Of a stretch of DNA of 47,472 bases, positions 9,156 to 19,636 are shown piece by piece. This DNA comes from Patescibacteria group bacterium. GTDB lineage: Bacteria > Patescibacteriota > Minisyncoccia > Phycocordibacterales > UBA9973. The DNA is taken from the NCBI GenBank assembly GCA_038061925.1, contig JBBTYD010000015.1, positions 1 to 47,472 of the forward strand, given 5' to 3'. Numbering within the stretch: the first letter of the stretch is position 1; each line of letters starts with the position of its first letter. The translations under genes were made by a program, and so were the position numbers. The notes under the pieces are model-generated. The model was not told the origin of the DNA. It searched no databases and was given only the letters and a program-made list of their open reading frames with translations.

Positions 9156-11693
9156 ATGAAAAATAGAAATGTTCGCCTATCGAAAAATGTTATTCCAATG
9201 GAATATCATATCCAGTTAAAACCGGATTTAGACAATTTCACCTTTGCCGGCGTCGAAACTATAAAAATCTCCATCTTGAAACCGACCAAAGTATTGACTC
9301 TCCATTCTAAAGAAATTGAGATAGTAACCGCTCATATGTTGCTCGAAAAAAATTCGCTTGTCGGCAAAGCCAGAAATTTATTTGCAAAAATCTCTTATAA
9401 TGAAAAGAAGGAAACTGTTGCTTTTTTATTTCCAAAGTTTATTCCGGCTAATAAAAAAATAAAACTGACGATCGTTTTCAAAGGAATACTCAACGACAAG
9501 ATGCGTGGATTTTACAGAAGCAAATACACTGTTCTAGAAAAGGAATATCATATGGCCACGACTCAATTTGAAGCCACCGACGCCCGGAGAGCATTTCCTT
9601 GTTTTGATGAACCAGCGCAAAAAGCCATATTTCACGTTTCGCTCATCGTCCCAAAAGGCAAAACCACTATTTCCAATACCTTGCCAGTTTCTGTTTTAGA
9701 ACACGAAGCGGGATACGAAATTGTAAAATTCTTACCAACCCCGAAAATGTCCACCTATTTGCTCGCGTTTATCGTTGGTGATTTTGAATATCTTGAATCC
9801 CCAACCCTCGGCCATAGCACGGTCACGAGCGAGGCCCAAAATAATGTTCGAATTCGCGTCTATACCACTCCCGGGAAAAAACATCAAGCTAAGTTTGCGT
9901 TGGATTGCGCAGTGAAAACTTTAAAATTTTATAATGAATATTTTGGCATTGCGTATCCCCTGCCAGTACTCGATATGATCGCTATCCCGGATTTTACATC
10001 TGGAGCAATGGAAAATTGGGGCGCCATAACCTATCGTGAAAGCGCGCTTTTAGTTGATGAAAATCATTCATCGCTTTTAAATAAACAATGGGTCGCGCTG
10101 GTCATTGCCCACGAGATAGCGCATCAATGGTTCGGCAATTTAGTGACGATGGAATGGTGGACGCACTTATGGCTCAACGAAGGCTTTGCTTCATATATAG
10201 AATATTTGGCCGTGGATAAACTTTTTCCAAAATGGGATATTTGGACGCAATTTTCAAATAATGAATTAGGCACAGCCTTGCGGTTAGATGCCCTTTTTCA
10301 TACTCACCCGATCGAAATACCGGTGCATCATCCGGATGAAATTGGCGAAATATTTGATGAAGTGTCATATTCCAAGGGAGCGTCAATCATCCGAATGCTC
10401 GCAGATTACTTAGGTGAGAAAAATTTTAGAGATGGGTTGCGATATTATTTAAAAAAGAACAGTTATAAAAATACCGAGACTCTCCACCTCTGGCAGGCCT
10501 TTGAAAAAATTACAAAAAAACCGGTTGCCAAAATAATGCATAATTGGACATCTTTTCCAGGCTATCCGGTTATAAAAGCCAGTATCGCAAACAAAAAACT
10601 AAATTTATCCCAGGAGAGATTTTTTGCCAGTCCAATATCAAAAGCAAAGGGAAAAGATAAGACTTTATGGCAAATACCCATATCTTATTTGGTTAATGAC
10701 AGATATATAAAAATAAATATAGGCGAAGCAGGTTTTTATCGCACGGCTTATTCTGAAGAACTTCTGGAAAAATTAAAAATGCCGGTAGAAAAGAAATTAT
10801 TGTCCACCCGTGACAGAATCGGCATCATTAGAGACCTTTTTGCTCTGGCGGAAGCGGGGACTATTCCTACAACCGACGCGCTCGAATTTTTGTCTGCATA
10901 TAAAAAAGAAGACAATTACACCGTGTGGCTCGAGCTGGCAATGGGCCTCGGACGCCTCGAAGCGCTTTTAGCCCGAGAAAATTATAAAGAAAATTTGAAT
11001 AAAATTATTCTGAAATTATTCTCCCCTCTTTTTACCCGACTCGGTTGGAATAAAAACGATAAAGAACCTCATACCCATACTCTTTTACGTTCCTTGGTCA
11101 TATCTAGACTTGGAAGATCCGGCCATAAAATAATATTGAAGGAAGCGAAAAAGAAATTTACTAAAGGCAATATTCACCCAGATATAAGAGGAGCGGTGTA
11201 TGCGACTATCGCATCGTGGGGCAAGATGAAAGAATATGATGTGTTTATAAAAAAATATAAGAAGGAAACGCTTCATGAAGAGAAAAATAGAATTGGAAGT
11301 GCTTTGGGAGACTTCTGTGACCCGAAAATATTAAAACTTGCCTGTAAATTCGCGTTTTCAGATAACGTTCGTAAACAAGATAGCATTAGTATCATTTCCT
11401 CTGTGGGAGGAAACCCTTTAGGTCGCGATATATGGTGGAATTTTGTTCAAAAGAATTGGAAAACACTTGTCTCGCGTTATGGCGACGGCGGTCATACGCT
11501 TGCCAGATTGGTGAAAGCGATATCCAGCAGCGCGGAAGAAAAACACTTGAGATCTTTTAAGAAATTTTTCACTACCCACAATGCCCCCGGCGCTAAACGG
11601 GCAATAGAGCAAGTCTTGGAACGTTTAGAAAGCAACCTCGCTTGGCTGAAAAGAGATGGGAAGATAATAGCGAAGTTTTTAAATAATGTATGA
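9156..11693 (+). CDS. pepN: M1-family aminopeptidase (PepN/puromycin-sensitive type)
   Basis: TQFEATDARRAFPCFDEP, GAMENWG, HEIAHQWFG-x-WLNEG, YSKG. Confidence 0.93.
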   Translation: MKNRNVRLSKNVIPMEYHIQLKPDLDNFTFAGVETIKISILKPTKVLTLHSKEIEIVTAHMLLEKNSLVGKARNLFAKISYNEKKETVAFLFPKFIPANKKIKLTIVFKGILNDKMRGFYRSKYTVLEKEYHMATTQFEATDARRAFPCFDEPAQKAIFHVSLIVPKGKTTISNTLPVSVLEHEAGYEIVKFLPTPKMSTYLLAFIVGDFEYLESPTLGHSTVTSEAQNNVRIRVYTTPGKKHQAKFALDCAVKTLKFYNEYFGIAYPLPVLDMIAIPDFTSGAMENWGAITYRESALLVDENHSSLLNKQWVALVIAHEIAHQWFGNLVTMEWWTHLWLNEGFASYIEYLAVDKLFPKWDIWTQFSNNELGTALRLDALFHTHPIEIPVHHPDEIGEIFDEVSYSKGASIIRMLADYLGEKNFRDGLRYYLKKNSYKNTETLHLWQAFEKITKKPVAKIMHNWTSFPGYPVIKASIANKKLNLSQERFFASPISKAKGKDKTLWQIPISYLVNDRYIKINIGEAGFYRTAYSEELLEKLKMPVEKKLLSTRDRIGIIRDLFALAEAGTIPTTDALEFLSAYKKEDNYTVWLELAMGLGRLEALLARENYKENLNKIILKLFSPLFTRLGWNKNDKEPHTHTLLRSLVISRLGRSGHKIILKEAKKKFTKGNIHPDIRGAVYATIASWGKMKEYDVFIKKYKKETLHEEKNRIGSALGDFCDPKILKLACKFAFSDNVRKQDSISIISSVGGNPLGRDIWWNFVQKNWKTLVSRYGDGGHTLARLVKAISSSAEEKHLRSFKKFFTTHNAPGAKRAIEQVLERLESNLAWLKRDGKIIAKFLNNV

Positions 11694-12093
11694 TGAAACT
11701 ATGAAAACAATAAACAACCGAACAACCAAATATCCGATTAATGACATGTTTTTAAAAAGATACTCCCCCCGGGCGATGTCTGGAGAAAAAATATCGGAGG
11801 AAAAACTAATGACCTTGTTTGAGGCCGCGCGATGGGCGCCTTCTTCTTCTAACACACAACCTTGGAGATTTTTATACGCAATGCGCGACACTCCCGAATT
11901 TGAAAATTTATTCTCTTTGCTTGTAGATTTTAATAAAGATTGGTGCGCGCGAGCCGGAGCGCTGGTTGTGACTGTTTCAAAAAAAACTGGATTAAAAGAC
12001 GGACTATCCATCACCCATTCTTTTGACGCCGGTTCGGCTTGGGAAAATTTAGCTTTGCAAGCTTCAGAGTTTGAAGGTAAATTTCCCGCTTAG
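11686..12093 (+). pseudogene. Nitroreductase-family protein, C-terminally truncated
   Basis: RYSPRAM, AARWAPSSSNTQPWRF, FDAGSAWENLALQA, then 9 unrelated residues and a stop. The expected GL..H.M.GF and final strands are missing. Confidence 0.65.
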
Positions 12094-12114
12094 ACTTATC
12101 CACCTCCTCCCATT

Positions 12115-12152
12115 TACTTTACTTGACTAAAGTACTTTATTTTGCTAAAGTG
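12115..12152 (+). promoter_or_regulatory. Tandem YerC/HisR-type operators overlapping a sigma70 promoter
   Basis: TACTTTA-CTTGAC-TAAAGTA (12115-12134) and TACTTTA-TTTTGC-TAAAGTG (12133-12152). -35 TTGACT (12123-28), 17-bp spacer, TGn-TAAAGT (12146-51). Confidence 0.8.
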
Positions 12153-12160
12153 GATAACAA

Positions 12161-12493
12161 ATGAAAAATATCGGAGAAAATATAAAAGAAATGGATTGGA
12201 ATATCACAAAAAATAACCAACTCATCCAGGCCATTTTGACTCTTAAAAATGCTAATGAAGCAAAACTTTTTTTGCGCGACCTTCTGACCCAAGGCGAAAT
12301 CAAAAAATTCGCGAATCGCCTTGAAGCTGCTTCCTTGCTTTCTAAAGACGTGCAATACAACGCCATCATTGAAAATAATGGCCTTTCTTCCACAACTGTT
12401 GCTCGAATATCAAAATGGCTCAAAGGTAACTCAGGCGGATATAGGTTAATTTTACCTAGGTTAGAAAATCATCATCACACAACCAAACCTTGA
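12161..12493 (+). CDS. TrpR-family repressor YerC/YecD (HisR-like)
   Basis: FLRDLLTxxEI..RL..A..L....Y..I....GLSSTTVARIS.WL....GGY; ends NHHHTTKP. Confidence 0.9.
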   Translation: MKNIGENIKEMDWNITKNNQLIQAILTLKNANEAKLFLRDLLTQGEIKKFANRLEAASLLSKDVQYNAIIENNGLSSTTVARISKWLKGNSGGYRLILPRLENHHHTTKP

Positions 12494-12570
12494 GAGTTGG
12501 TCTGTGATCGTATTTAATTTTTCTACAAAAAATGCAATTACAAACGGGCTCTCAAAAGGAGTCCCTTTTC
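12470..12570 (+). promoter_or_regulatory. Putative histidine-responsive transcription attenuator
   Basis: CAT CAT CAC codons; mutually exclusive helices 12474-88/12496-508, 12490-515/12530-555 and 12546-52/12558-64 followed by CTTTT. Confidence 0.7.
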
Positions 12571-12630
12571 GTTGCCACTTGGTGGATAAACGAAAATTAG
12601 TTTGTTGAAAACAAAATAAGAAAGAAAAAT

Positions 12631-13032
12631 ATGCAAATGACAAGTATACTTATGCCTGACTTCAAAAAAAGGAGGGGGCTGGTGACGGTTGTGGTGCAAG
12701 ACGAAAATACCAGAGAAATCCTCATGGTAGCTTTTACCAATCGAGCTGGGTTTCTTGAAACTCTCGCGAGTGGCGAGGCAGTATTCTATTCAACATCACG
12801 AAAAGAACGCTGGAAAAAAGGAGAGAAAAGCGGGAATTACCAAATTGTACACTCTATTAAAATTGATTGTGATGGCGATGCTCTTGTTTATATGGTAAAT
12901 CAAAAAGGAGCAGGCGCTTGTCACACTGGCAATCGCACCTGTTTCTATAGATCAATCATAGGATCTGTCTTATTTACCCGAAAAAGAGAACAAATTTTGA
13001 TTCTTCCTGTTCATTTAAATATTACACATTAA
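12631..13032 (+). CDS. hisI: Phosphoribosyl-AMP cyclohydrolase
   Basis: LMVAF, WKKGEKSGNYQ, DCDGDAL, ACHTGNRTCFY. Confidence 0.95.
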   Translation: MQMTSILMPDFKKRRGLVTVVVQDENTREILMVAFTNRAGFLETLASGEAVFYSTSRKERWKKGEKSGNYQIVHSIKIDCDGDALVYMVNQKGAGACHTGNRTCFYRSIIGSVLFTRKREQILILPVHLNITH

Positions 13033-13072
13033 ACAAGTATTGAGGATCAAATCGCGTCTGATCCAACGCAAC

Positions 13073-13113
13073 AAAAAGGGCGACTCGTTTAGAAAAACGA
13101 CCCGCCCTTTTTT
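13073..13113. terminator. Bidirectional intrinsic terminator after hisI
   Basis: AAAAAGGGCG-ACTCGTTT...AAACGACC-CGCCCTTTTTT between convergent genes. Confidence 0.75.
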
Positions 13114-13184
13114 ATATTTAATATAGTTTACAGAGTCACGCCTGAACGTAGATATTTACAATTTTTAATATCAAAGCGCGTTAA

Positions 13185-14093
13185 CTAAAGAATTTTCTCC
13201 CGCAATCTGGCAATCTGGTAAATACTAAATAAGAGAATAAGAGCGGCAATCCATTGGGTAATAGATAGTATGGTGTGATTTACTATCATATCCAGAAAAA
13301 TAGCGAAAAAAGGAAAAGTTAATTCCAAAATAGTGGAAATATGAACCGGAGTTTTTGCAAGCCCTTTGTAATAAATAAGTAAAGCCACCATACCAGTAGA
13401 GAGAGCGATAAGCGCTAATAAACCAAATTGAGAAGCAGTTGGCGTAGCTAAACCTCCGCCAGTTGTATCCCCAAATAAAAGCAAGAATGGCAAGGCAACT
13501 AATACTGTGACCAAAAATCTATAAAAAGTGCTAACTTTGAAATCCACTTTTCCCAAAAGCATCTTAGAAAATGTGGTCGAAGAACCCCAAGCAAATGCCG
13601 CGCCGAGCGCATATAACGCAGCGATAATAGTTCCTTCGCCAGTCGCAAAATTTATATATCCATTTTTGAAGGTTACAAAATAAGCGGCGATTATCGCGAG
13701 CAAGGCCCATTTTATATATCTTTTATCAAATTTTTCTTTTAGGAAAATACTGGCAGTAAAAACAGCAAAAATCGGCTGAAGTTTTTGCAAGAGGAATACC
13801 ACTGAAATAGAAATAAAATGTACTTTACCAAGCGCTGTTGTAAACCATAACGTGCCAAAAAGTCCGCTTAAAATTGCAATCAAAACAATCAGCCACCATT
13901 CACGCTTCGTTAATTTTGTTTTTAAGACATATTTATAAACAAACGGAGATAAAATTATCAAACCAATCAAGTGCTCAAAGAAAATTATTGTAATCGGTGG
14001 AAGAGAATATAAATGCTGACGGATGAGACCATCAAAGGCCCAGAGCGTCGCTGCAACAAGAATGAAAATTGGTCCAGTATAATCTTTTAGCAT
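13185..14093 (-). CDS. EamA/DMT-family transporter
   Basis: About 10 TM helices, two EamA repeats (LQPIF...FLKEK). Confidence 0.88.
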   Translation of the reverse strand: MLKDYTGPIFILVAATLWAFDGLIRQHLYSLPPITIIFFEHLIGLIILSPFVYKYVLKTKLTKREWWLIVLIAILSGLFGTLWFTTALGKVHFISISVVFLLQKLQPIFAVFTASIFLKEKFDKRYIKWALLAIIAAYFVTFKNGYINFATGEGTIIAALYALGAAFAWGSSTTFSKMLLGKVDFKVSTFYRFLVTVLVALPFLLLFGDTTGGGLATPTASQFGLLALIALSTGMVALLIYYKGLAKTPVHISTILELTFPFFAIFLDMIVNHTILSITQWIAALILLFSIYQIARLREKIL

Positions 14094-14416
14094 AATTTTA
14101 AATCTTTTTTAATCTGCGTTATTAATTCTTCTTCTGTATCAAATTTTTTGTACTGTCTTAAAAATTTTTTTATTTGGATGGTCACTTCTTTTCCGTATGC
14201 ATTTTCATTATATCCTATTAAATGCCCCTCAATTTTCTCTCCTGGACCAACAACGATACCCGCTCTGTATTTCTTGCCATCCAGTATAACATTCCCCGAG
14301 TAAATTCCAGATGGGAGCATATCTTTTTTTTTGGTCTCTAAGTTGACTGTCGGGAAACCGATTTTTTTTCCGTATCCATCCCCCTTAATAACTTTGCCAG
14401 AAATTAGGTAACTCAT
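14087..14416 (-). CDS. Monofunctional riboflavin kinase (RibF C-terminal domain only)
   Basis: GxGxGxxIGFPTxNL, ExH, YG, LR..KKF...EEL..QI..D. Confidence 0.85.
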   Translation of the reverse strand: MSYLISGKVIKGDGYGKKIGFPTVNLETKKKDMLPSGIYSGNVILDGKKYRAGIVVGPGEKIEGHLIGYNENAYGKEVTIQIKKFLRQYKKFDTEEELITQIKKDLKLC

Positions 14417-18385: not shown

Positions 18386-18682
18386 CTATTTACCTAATTT
18401 CTTTAACATTAGATGAAAACCGCCATTTTTATTACGAAGTTCACGAGATCCTCGGGTAACAGTGCTTATGCCAAGACCTAAATTCCCTGCTATAGACCTA
18501 TGTGTTTCTCCTTTATTAAGCTTTTTAACTATCTGCCATCTTAAAGCTAAAGCTTCAAATTCCGCTGGCGTCAGAATATCTATCAAGAACTCAGTCATTA
18601 ATTTTCTATCTCCAAAAATTTTAGAAAAAACTTCTACTAGCTCTTGCTTGTATTCTGGAATTTTTTTATTTATGTGCTTCAT
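18386..18682 (-). CDS. trpR: Trp repressor
   Basis: LTPAE..AL..RWQIV..L..GETHR.IA..LG.GISTVTRGSREL; 3 bp downstream of trpS. Confidence 0.88.
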   Translation of the reverse strand: MKHINKKIPEYKQELVEVFSKIFGDRKLMTEFLIDILTPAEFEALALRWQIVKKLNKGETHRSIAGNLGLGISTVTRGSRELRNKNGGFHLMLKKLGK

Positions 18683-18685
18683 TTT

Positions 18686-19636
18686 TTAATAAACATTAAC
18701 TCCGATTTTCTTTCGTACTTCCTCCATTTTCTTTGAAGCTACTTTTTTAGCTTTCTCACCACCGGCTTTTAGGATCGTTAGCGCTTTGGGGATATCTTTC
18801 GCAAATTCTTTTCTTTTTTGTCGCAAGGGCGCAATAAATTTTTCCAAATCTTCTATTAGCAATTCTTTTAATTCTTTATATTTGCCTGCTTTATTTTTGT
18901 AGATAGACAGAAGTTCTGATGCAGGACGAAGTAAATTATGTATCGCATAGACATTTTTTGGAATTCCTTCATCTGAATCTGTGACAATGCCCATCACCGC
19001 CTTTTTTATTTCCTCATATTCAGCAAAAAGCGGAATAGTATTGCCATAACTTTTAGACATTTTGCGTCCATCCGTTCCCGGTACAGTCGCTACCTCTTTC
19101 CTAATCATTGGATTGGGTAATTTAAAAGTTTCTCCATATATCCGATTAAATTTTTCTGCCAAATCGCAGGCTATCTCCACATGCTGTTTTTGGTCTGCTC
19201 CGACCGGCACTAAATCAGGACCGTAGAGTAAAATATCAGCCGCCATCAAAACGGGATAATTAAAAGTGCCGACATCAATTTCTTTATTCTTCGCCTCTGC
19301 ATCCTTGAAAGCATGGGCACGCATTAAATATGGCATTGTGATAATCGTATCAAAAATCCAAGCAAGTTCTGTGTGCTCAGAAATGTCACTTTGTTTGAAA
19401 AATGTTACTTTTTCCGAATCAAGACCAATCGCTAAATAATCAAGCAAAACATTCTTTATGTTTTCATTCATTTCTTTTGAATTTCTAAGAGAATGTAAAG
19501 CATGATAATCAGCTATAAAAACATAGCCATCATGCTCATTCTGTAAATCAACAAATTGTTTCATCGCTCCAAAATAGTTGCCAATATGAGGCTTTCCTGA
19601 AGGCTGAACACCCGATAAAAATACCTTTTCGCTCAT
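18686..19636 (-). CDS. trpS: Tryptophanyl-tRNA synthetase
   Basis: SGVQPSG, HIGNYFGA, YPVLMAADIL, VPVGADQKQH, KMSKS. Confidence 0.97.
   Translation of the reverse strand: MSEKVFLSGVQPSGKPHIGNYFGAMKQFVDLQNEHDGYVFIADYHALHSLRNSKEMNENIKNVLLDYLAIGLDSEKVTFFKQSDISEHTELAWIFDTIITMPYLMRAHAFKDAEAKNKEIDVGTFNYPVLMAADILLYGPDLVPVGADQKQHVEIACDLAEKFNRIYGETFKLPNPMIRKEVATVPGTDGRKMSKSYGNTIPLFAEYEEIKKAVMGIVTDSDEGIPKNVYAIHNLLRPASELLSIYKNKAGKYKELKELLIEDLEKFIAPLRQKRKEFAKDIPKALTILKAGGEKAKKVASKKMEEVRKKIGVNVY

Follow-up and report, generated by a model that had tools for sequence, protein, structure and literature searches.

A probable histidine attenuator in the 3' end of a hisR repressor gene of a Patescibacteria genome

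The hisR-hisI locus described here lies on contig JBBTYD010000015.1 of a Patescibacteria group bacterium (assembly GCA_038061925.1; genome of 596 kb in 27 contigs, 94.5% complete). The whole stretch of that contig that was analysed, 47,472 nt in length, is referred to as the window. An original prediction, made from this stretch, had proposed that a repressor gene of the YerC/HisR type doubles as the leader of a His attenuator placed ahead of hisI. We consider it likely that the locus is a hisR-hisI operon with a His attenuator in the 3' end of hisR. The observation behind the prediction was confirmed and its attenuator interpretation is supported, and the scope turned out to be wider than a reader of this one stretch could see. 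By comparison of related loci, the predicted attenuator design is the rule in the HisR genes of Paceibacterota (main type, at least 79 loci), and it also exists unfused. The simplest reading of the window is an in-frame fusion of the repressor gene and a leader open reading frame (ORF), set atop autorepression by HisR. The features concerned are these:

12116-12133, no strand assigned: HisR operator 1 (ACTTTA-N6-TAAAGT), an exact pattern match; its spacer contains a -35-like TTGACT (at 12123)
12134-12151, no strand assigned: HisR operator 2, abutting operator 1, an exact pattern match; its right half TAAAGT is a -10-like hexamer
12161-12493, + strand: hisR, a yerC-type TrpR-family repressor gene (110 aa; PF01371, TIGR02531), also the proposed leader ORF
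12470-12478, + strand: three tandem His control codons, CAT CAT CAC, as read in the sequence
12474-12488, + strand: segment 1, the 5' arm of helix 1:2, which overlaps and follows the His codons
12490-12515, + strand: segment 2, the 3' arm of helix 1:2 and 5' arm of helix 2:3, which includes the stop codon TGA at 12491-12493
12530-12555, + strand: segment 3, the antiterminator 3' arm, of which the last 10 nt are the terminator 5' arm
12546-12573, + strand: terminator, listed by the terminator scan; stem 12546-12552/12558-12564 (segment 4), then C UUUU CG UU
12567-12595, + strand: second conserved hairpin, whose 5' arm is the terminator U tract; -9.4 kcal/mol
12631-13032, + strand: hisI (phosphoribosyl-AMP cyclohydrolase), the next gene after hisR and the proposed gene under the switch

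The product of the first gene matched PF01371 (Trp_repressor; E 1.2e-16, 61 bits, above the cut-off) and the NCBIfam model TIGR02531 (YerC/YecD; 62.6 bits, cut-off 42.2), and that of the second matched NF000768 with 140.2 bits (cut-off 126). Both gene assignments of the original prediction were thus upheld, as was the ending that it had read in hisR, CAT CAT CAC ACA ACC AAA CCT TGA, or HHHTTKP*. The nearest solved structures, 3KOR, 3G1C and 3FRW, could be aligned to residues 19-104 of the window HisR only, and the His tail therefore lies outside the fold.

Control of hisI would operate in two layers. In the first, HisR, presumably with free histidine as co-repressor, would bind the two tandem operators that overlap its own promoter. 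In the second, scarcity of His-tRNA would cause the ribosome translating hisR to stall on the His codons at 12470-78 and to cover segment 1; the 2:3 antiterminator would then form and RNA polymerase would read on into hisI. With plentiful His-tRNA the ribosome would reach the stop codon and mask segment 2, upon which the 3:4 terminator with its U tract would form and transcription would end after hisR. Stalling, coupling, termination itself and a leaderless or nearly leaderless mRNA are the steps that we infer in this scheme.

Folding of the window RNA gave the three mutually exclusive helices that had been anticipated: helix 1:2 (12474-12488 with 12496-12508, forming the hairpin 12474-12508) at -8.3 kcal/mol, the 2:3 antiterminator (12490-12515 with 12530-12555) at -22.8 kcal/mol, found in both the minimum free energy (MFE) and the centroid folds, and the terminator at -8.4 kcal/mol. 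A ribosome was represented by a mask that extended from the first A-site base 15 nt in the 5' direction and 12 nt in the 3' direction. With the footprint on the first or the third His codon the antiterminator formed, and with the footprint on TGA (12476-12502 masked), and only then, the terminator appeared in the MFE structure, so that the switch proposed beforehand was reproduced by constrained folding. In the window RNA without a ribosome the MFE structure was the antiterminator. The fold of 12460-12640 had an energy of -38.5 kcal/mol versus -29.4 +/- 3.7 kcal/mol for shuffled sequences (z -2.46), with 3 of 200 shuffles as good. On its own the window fold is only moderately better than chance, and the case rests on comparative data. 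A scan of 11500-13500 against Rfam gave no match up to E 10, including His_leader (RF00514) and T-box, and in a scan of 20 related loci no family was found at the element, the weak T-box match in L007 being located at the edge of the locus (1-41).

Comparative data were collected from two sources. When 101 genomes of the family were searched with the protein, 21 clear orthologues were obtained, and from a scan of species representatives the best 80 of 429 relatives were taken, nearly all of them from metagenome-assembled genomes of Paceibacterota or Nomurabacteria. After 9 duplicates were dropped 93 loci were left, 92 of them with a complete gene. A His-codon tail was found in 88 of these 92 homologous genes. 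Its form was HH(H), about 7 codons, K/R-G-L, 2-9 codons and a stop in 86; the window and L086 had a variant tail, and L041, L068, L094 and L098 had no tail. The tailed genes are followed, 10-35 nt past the stop, by a strong hairpin and U tract, mostly of -15 to -28 kcal/mol. No terminator was found after the tail-less genes of L041 and L068, and weak or distant hairpins only were found in L094 and L098.

For the main type, 79 loci were aligned using MAFFT, without fitting to any structure (alignment A3). The 14 loci left out were the window and L086 as the variant type, L012, L016, L018, L052 and L083 with a degenerate or different hairpin, L054 with a run of N, L082 and L085 at a contig end, and the four loci lacking a tail. 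Within the six codons ending at the last His, at least two His codons were counted in 73 of the 79 loci and at least three in 47. Outside the tail, His is found once in the 8267 residues of the 79 main-type protein bodies, compared with 13 in 772 residues of the TrpR-like paralogue of the same genomes and 2 in 436 of the tail-less orthologues. The last His codon directly abuts segment 1. The K/R of KGL comes 7 codons later in 52 of 79 loci, and the stop follows 4-9 codons after that K/R in 75. Given these codon distances, in most loci the stop follows segment 2 by 12 nt or less, and a terminating ribosome would therefore reach into segment 2.

The helices proved to be conserved together with the tail, as the original prediction had supposed. 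In A3 the terminator had 94.6% of cells paired and 9 of 12 pairs changed on both sides; its covariation of 0.237, versus 0.121 +/- 0.006, was reached by none of 500 shuffles. The antiterminator, formed by the codons of the ORF tail with the terminator 5' arm and an apical part, comprises 17 pairs, of which 13 were changed on both sides (109 cells), with 87.7% of cells paired. Its covariation was 0.296 versus 0.145 +/- 0.007, again reached by 0 of 500 shuffles, and controls slid along the alignment gave at most 0.111. The tail-codon consensus is AAACUURGGAAAGGGUUG, encoding an apparently conserved K-L-x-K-G-L. When the five apical antiterminator pairs were taken alone, 91.1% were paired versus 71.4%, and covariation was 0.441 versus 0.138 (0/500). 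In helix 1:2 a pyrimidine stretch right after the His codons pairs with GGAAAGGG. Cognate duplexes were more stable than those from non-cognate swaps between loci for helices 2:3 (-17.6 vs -13.9 kcal/mol), 3:4 (-20.0 vs -16.2 kcal/mol) and 1:2 (-6.9 vs -6.0 kcal/mol), and for each of the three the cognate energy was reached in 0 of 2000 permutations. The possibility that the main-type hairpin is a DNA operator was also considered; its variable loop lengths argued against this. A covariance model of the main type, R1, matched 16 of 151 genomes of the class at E <=0.001. The yerC-fused element was present only in G061, G621 and G585, and the other matches were ordinary terminators after unrelated ORFs; R1 is therefore not specific below about 45 bits.

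The same RNA was also found behind short ORFs outside hisR. A DNA search using window positions 12440-12640 over 401 genomes of the order gave matches in 47, nearly all of which were short AT-rich chance matches, judged by length and query position. The match in L124 was inspected and is real: this locus carries a tail-less yerC, two operator palindromes, a 24-aa ORF (MQNKQEQFSKTHHHGAETGESVCV), window-type helices, a SLOG gene and hisG. A pattern made from window segment 3 and the U tract yielded 13 metagenome loci, and the segment 3 block ACAAACGGGCTCTC is common to the window, L086, L124 and these 13 loci found through it. Distinct stand-alone leaders of the window subtype numbered seven (that of the L124 genome and six from metagenomes), 24-35 aa long, with HHH, HH or HYH. 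L173 proved to be a fused form of the L086 type and L178 a near-identical copy of the window. The metagenome contig L176 (about 600-850) retains an L086-type attenuator only in its 3' half, beginning at the 2:3 loop; the sequence upstream of this point is unrelated, which reflects either a recombination breakpoint within the element or a chimeric assembly. Among the main-type loci, nine short His-containing ORFs of 18-24 aa were found, followed by the same helices. They are located after a SLOG gene and before a divergent phosphoribosyltransferase-like (PRTase-like) gene; three of these loci have a tail-less yerC, and adjacent HH is present in 7 of the 9 ORFs, e.g. MEKLIYKILNSHHRNLFLIERG. Since the same RNA stands behind short stand-alone His ORFs, the His codons and the helices travel as one unit.

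In the alignment of the window subtype (A4) segment 3 and the U tract are fixed by the search pattern, so no covariation is claimed for it; segment 1 was put out of register by MAFFT, and per-sequence folds were used instead. Among the 9 distinct sequences of this subtype a His stall led to the antiterminator in 9, a ribosome at the stop led to the terminator in 7 (not in L124 and L170), and the terminator formed without a ribosome in 6. Helix 1:2 was present in all 9, at -5.3 to -12.9 kcal/mol. The base pair A12485-U12498 of the window replaces a G-C pair of L086 and L124, as read by eye from the alignment.

Some further features of these loci were recorded. The second hairpin at 12567-12595 is kept in all 9 window-type sequences, with an inner stem CCAC/GUGG in the window versus CCGC/GCGG elsewhere (by eye), and a comparable hairpin is also seen 3' of the main-type terminator. 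Whatever the gene downstream of the attenuator, its start codon is preceded by a conserved GTTCTTTGAAAGGAG-like motif (window 12600-12612: GTTTGTTGAAAAC), which in the relatives lies 20-90 nt past the terminator. This motif may be able to base-pair with the conserved TTTCGAAAC that directly precedes segment 3. The stand-alone leaders occur in a recurrent module consisting of hisR, SLOG/TIGR00725, a His leader with attenuator, and either a divergent PRTase-like gene (PF00156, below cut-off) or hisG (L012, L041, L054, L068, L073, L074, L084, L093, L098, L124). The gene content of this module hints at an unrecognised pathway linked to histidine or phosphoribosyl pyrophosphate.

The stand-alone leaders bear on the question of whether the His tail is instead a feature of the HisR protein, such as a metal- or ligand-binding extension, with the hairpin merely a terminator and the complementarity incidental. 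In most homologues the peptide sequence of the tail (HHH-x7-KGLS) does look conserved irrespective of the following gene, and any gene needs a terminator. However, synonymous as well as non-synonymous positions of the tail co-vary with the terminator 5' arm and loop, terminators are not normally sequence-conserved across genera, ORFs of 22-35 aa that lack a HisR domain carry the same His codons and helices, and the solved structures of the HisR family end before the tail. We regard this explanation as very improbable.

The original prediction had proposed to test whether the His tail occurs specifically where his genes follow. It does not, as only 14 of the 79 main-type loci have a histidine-linked gene directly after the attenuator. 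These genes are hisS in four loci (L067, TIGR00442 with 406 bits, cut-off 287; L057, L070 and L099, joined by clustering), hisG in four (L042, L049, L077, L079), hisI in three (L045, L047, L107) and tRNA-His(GTG) in three (L007, L010, L111), with no other tRNA species detected downstream on the same strand. The gene order hisR-hisS-hisG-hisIE was seen in three loci and hisR-hisG-hisIE in one. Other downstream genes encode SLOG/TIGR00725 proteins (6/79), GNAT proteins, methyltransferases and many singletons, and in a cluster of 9 loci a 260-300-aa protein without a Pfam or NCBIfam match. Downstream of the seven stand-alone leaders of the window type, hisG was found by Pfam in L124, L172 and L177, with hisI also in L177, and a hisG-like N-terminus was judged by eye in L180. 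Searches of the window genome for HisA/F, HisG, HisD, IGPD and PRA-PH gave no match, all 14 control genomes being matched in each search, and none of 100 other genomes of the family yielded PRA-CH. In L047 and L107 a lone hisI stands beside genes taken by eye as riboflavin genes, and the riboflavin kinase gene of the window (14087-14416) is two genes from hisI. The orphan HisI may serve a purpose other than histidine synthesis. In L079 an unrelated ORF, and no further his gene, comes after hisG-hisIE within the 5-kb locus.

The first layer of control is indicated by the region upstream of hisR. The operator of HisR is given in the HisR passages of PMC9413887 as a 20-bp palindrome with the consensus cacTTTA-N6-TAAAgtg, and both window operators, putative sites matched by sequence, fit this consensus. 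Perfect ACTTTA-N6-TAAAGT sites occur twice in the 596-kb genome, both at 12116-12151; sites with one mismatch numbered 4, versus 7 for a reversed control pattern. A promoter-like site at 12123-12151 overlaps both operators. Operator-like sites were present at 86 of 92 relative loci versus 47 of 1768 control windows, and the relatives usually have a pair of them, placed at -41 and -23 relative to the start codon. The -10-like TAAAGT ends 9 nt before the ATG of the window hisR, and the hisR transcript would therefore be autoregulated and nearly leaderless; operator positions in the relatives also suggest leaderless hisR mRNAs. Such an mRNA would load its first ribosome once the 5' end emerges. 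The same passages of PMC9413887 state that histidine is the confirmed co-repressor of HisR and report in vitro validation of binding for the Ruminococcus gnavus protein. For the organism of the window we infer histidine as the ligand.

Folding of the main-type RNAs with footprints gave a less uniform picture than the window subtype. In RNA ending before segment 4, at least 60% of the 2:3 pairs were formed in 79 of 79 loci without a ribosome, in 74 under a His stall and in 48 with the ribosome at the stop. In the full RNA the terminator and the antiterminator were near-isoenergetic (35 vs 40 of 79), and with footprints the terminator/antiterminator numbers became 47/27 under a His stall and 57/14 at the stop. 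The shift is right in direction but not clean; like classical attenuators, the model therefore depends on co-transcriptional kinetics.

A number of observations weigh against a functional His attenuator in the window. The evidence for the switch there consists of DNA sequence and computed folds, and the model assumes transcription-translation coupling over an ORF of 330 nt. In the full main-type RNA under a His stall the terminator was still the MFE structure in 47 of 79 loci, and in the truncated RNA the core of segment 3 was at least half free in 0 loci without a ribosome, 0 under a His stall and 30 of 79 at the stop. Helix 1:2 of A3 is weakly supported, with 77.8% of cells paired, four pairs changed on both sides, a number reached by 383 of 500 shuffles, and one good covarying pair (21:42). 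In 6 of 79 loci the control window holds a single His. The HisR family is His-poor anyway, the aligned part of 3KOR having no His and that of 3G1C a single one. R1 scored the window subtype poorly (window 17.9 bits, E 0.16; L086 20.1 bits; L124 15.0 bits), and the downstream gene has no known link to histidine in 65 of the 79 main-type loci. The window copy has points of its own on this side. Its ORF stops 8 codons earlier than that of its nearest relative L086, the TGA at 12491-12493 replacing an AGA in the L086 tail (...KHPHNRTRESVGDRI*), so that the L086 stop position corresponds to the TAA at 12515-12517 of the window. Its terminator is weak, with 7 pairs including 2 G-U and four U after a C, and its -8.4 kcal/mol compares with -12.3 to -17.2 kcal/mol in the other 8 window-type sequences. 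Since no other his gene was found in the genome, hisI is an orphan here and the switch has no obvious physiological sense in this genome.

The points concerning the window copy are those expected under the main rival explanation, by which the attenuator is real in the family and the window copy is a decaying relic, with little or no His control and with hisI co-transcribed or silent. Default read-through, which the antiterminator in the MFE structure without a ribosome would mean, and local decay, suggested by a truncated nitroreductase gene next door, would also agree with it. On the other hand, the three helices, the HHH codons and their spacing are intact and the footprint folds still switch, hisR, the operators and hisI are intact as ORFs or sites, and the stop at 12491 lies at the base of segment 2, so that a terminating ribosome would mask segment 2 even better than in the relatives. 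Near-identical contigs from a second study carry the TGA as well, as does the metagenome locus L178. The codon is therefore not an assembly slip, and the same sequence, TGA included, persists in the population of the second study. Decay of the window copy is unlikely. The contigs of the second study and L178 have an A>T change at 12465 (Glu to Val just before HHH), with the His codons, TGA and helices kept. Reading TGA as a sense codon was rejected by inspection: the full tails of L006, L021 and L023 end in TGA, and the window ORFs are intact under table 11.

The loci with one His and the many downstream genes without a known His link would also fit a switch that is real but is not read by stalling at His codons. 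It could be a polarity sensor such as rph-pyrE, where, according to the relevant passage of PMC2784333, termination is controlled without specific codons, or it could respond to a factor in trans (HisR, a small molecule, or tRNA-His in the manner of a T-box), the His codons being kept for another reason. Against this, the His codons stand at a fixed distance directly 5' of segment 1 and the remainder of the ORF contains almost none, HH(H) is retained at this position in independent short leader ORFs, neither the window region nor the 20 relatives scanned gave a T-box or other Rfam match at the element, and the downstream genes are enriched for hisS, hisG, hisI and tRNA-His. Sensing by another route is thus quite unlikely, and stalling at the His codons is kept as the preferred reading.

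Attenuation by leader peptides is known from Proteobacteria, Actinobacteria and a few Firmicutes, where the leaders are short and dedicated. The hisL leader peptide has 16 aa, 7 of them His. Like the window, hisL of E. coli and Salmonella (RF00514) has tandem His codons in a translated leader, exclusive 1:2, 2:3 and 3:4 helices and an intrinsic terminator ahead of his genes. It differs in that its leader is a short dedicated peptide, whereas that of the window is a 110-aa repressor ORF with three His codons and without similarity to an Rfam family. In the trp system of E. coli, TrpR senses the free amino acid at the operator and the trpL attenuator senses charged tRNA. This dual control has the same logic of repression plus attenuation as is proposed for the window, but trpR is not linked to the operon and the 14-aa trpL is an ORF of its own, whereas in the window repressor, leader and regulated gene would form one unit in which two of them share one ORF. 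Of the features that define a leader-peptide attenuator, the window has tandem control codons at segment 1, exclusive 2:3 and 3:4 helices and an intrinsic terminator, a weak one in its case. Its 110-aa ORF is not a short dedicated leader (about 14-35 aa), such as the unfused relatives have.

The attenuators of Firmicutes come closer in some respects. The mechanism of his leaders, in which a stall at His codons favours the antiterminator, is summarised in PMC9413887, and the attenuator passages of that paper (Ashniev et al. 2022) describe candidate His attenuators of Firmicutes with 3-5 His codons in a row, in short ORFs, in genomes without HisR. The relevant part of Naville and Gautheret (2010, PMC2965389) places His leaders ahead of hisZ and a hisS paralogue in bacilli. 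These leaders share with the window the tandem His codons just upstream of the attenuator and the terminator and antiterminator hairpins. They differ in being separate short ORFs without HisR, whereas in the window the attenuator coexists with HisR and lies in frame inside its gene. According to its methods, the screen of PMC2965389 dropped terminators near an upstream gene, and fused forms were therefore invisible to it. HisR itself, the orthologue of B. subtilis YerC, is described in PMC9413887, in the passages on this regulator, as the histidine repressor of Firmicutes and some other phyla, autoregulated, the first gene of his operons, and less than 100 aa in length. The window HisR belongs to the same family and has the same operator consensus; those passages mention no His tail or embedded attenuator, and Patescibacteria does not occur in the main text of the paper.

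The original prediction had also stated that no described example of a repressor ORF serving as its own leader was known to its author. For the combination this stands, in that the open-access literature searched yielded no description of a repressor gene combined with an attenuator, nor of any attenuator in Patescibacteria. It does not stand for a full-length ORF as leader, of which rph-pyrE is a precedent: the passage on E. coli rph-pyrE in PMC2784333, citing Bonekamp 1984 and Jensen 1993, states that translation of the full-length rph up to the pyrE attenuator controls termination. That system resembles the window in using a full-length upstream ORF as leader and differs in its signal, the UTP-dependent speed of the polymerase, and in its upstream gene, which encodes an RNase; the window proposal involves a specific codon and the regulator of the pathway itself. 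Leader-peptide attenuation as such is thus known and a precedent can be named for every ingredient, and the fused repressor-leader layout is apparently undescribed.

Taken over the Paceibacterota, the results lead us to lean, somewhat beyond an even balance, towards a joint reading in which one ORF would serve two sensors. HisR would sense free histidine at tandem operators on a leaderless or nearly leaderless promoter, and translation of its own gene would sense the charging of His-tRNA, gating an attenuator ahead of hisS, tRNA-His, hisG/hisI, SLOG and PRTase-like genes. Other His codons would have been purged from the ORF so that only the regulatory pause depends on His, and the fused form would have arisen from the stand-alone leader still present in relatives. 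If true, the Candidate Phyla Radiation (CPR) would gain its first described attenuation system, and a repressor gene would for the first time be seen to act as its own leader peptide, with repression by the free amino acid and attenuation by charged tRNA packed into one ORF in genomes of about 0.6 Mb. Extreme genome compaction could then merge regulatory layers, and the unfused and fused forms would offer a natural series for the evolution of attenuators. Tight transcription-translation coupling would be implied in uncultivated CPR bacteria, and several unexplained genes (SLOG, PRTase-like, lone hisG/hisI, small Cys-Gly peptides) would be pointed to as histidine-linked in organisms unable to make histidine. 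Attenuator screens that ignore terminators near the upstream gene would have a corresponding blind spot.

The small peptides just mentioned are encoded by short ORFs ending in ...C[YS]SLGG[AE]GPH[LM], which show synonymous variation and precede the gene for the 260-300-aa protein (by eye; L008, L013, L021, L007, L010, L046, L076, L078). In L007 and L010 tRNA-His is placed between the ORF and the protein gene. The short ORF and the 260-300-aa protein may represent a peptide plus its modifying enzyme.

Upstream of hisR in the window, the ORF at 11686-12093 encodes a 135-aa protein of the nitroreductase family that matches the N-terminal part of the Pfam model only and is likely a truncated gene. 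A similar-looking ORF of 193 aa lies downstream of hisR in L052, and in G061, a genome of the same genus, no nitroreductase-like ORF is present between the aminopeptidase gene and hisR. A second TrpR-family gene of the window (18386-18682, - strand, 98 aa) is closer to true TrpR (TIGR01321, 48.7 bits, below cut-off) and has no Trp-rich tail. It is directly downstream of a 316-aa ORF (18686-19636, - strand) taken by eye as trpS, and its pairing with a putative trpS ORF recurs in L026-L033.

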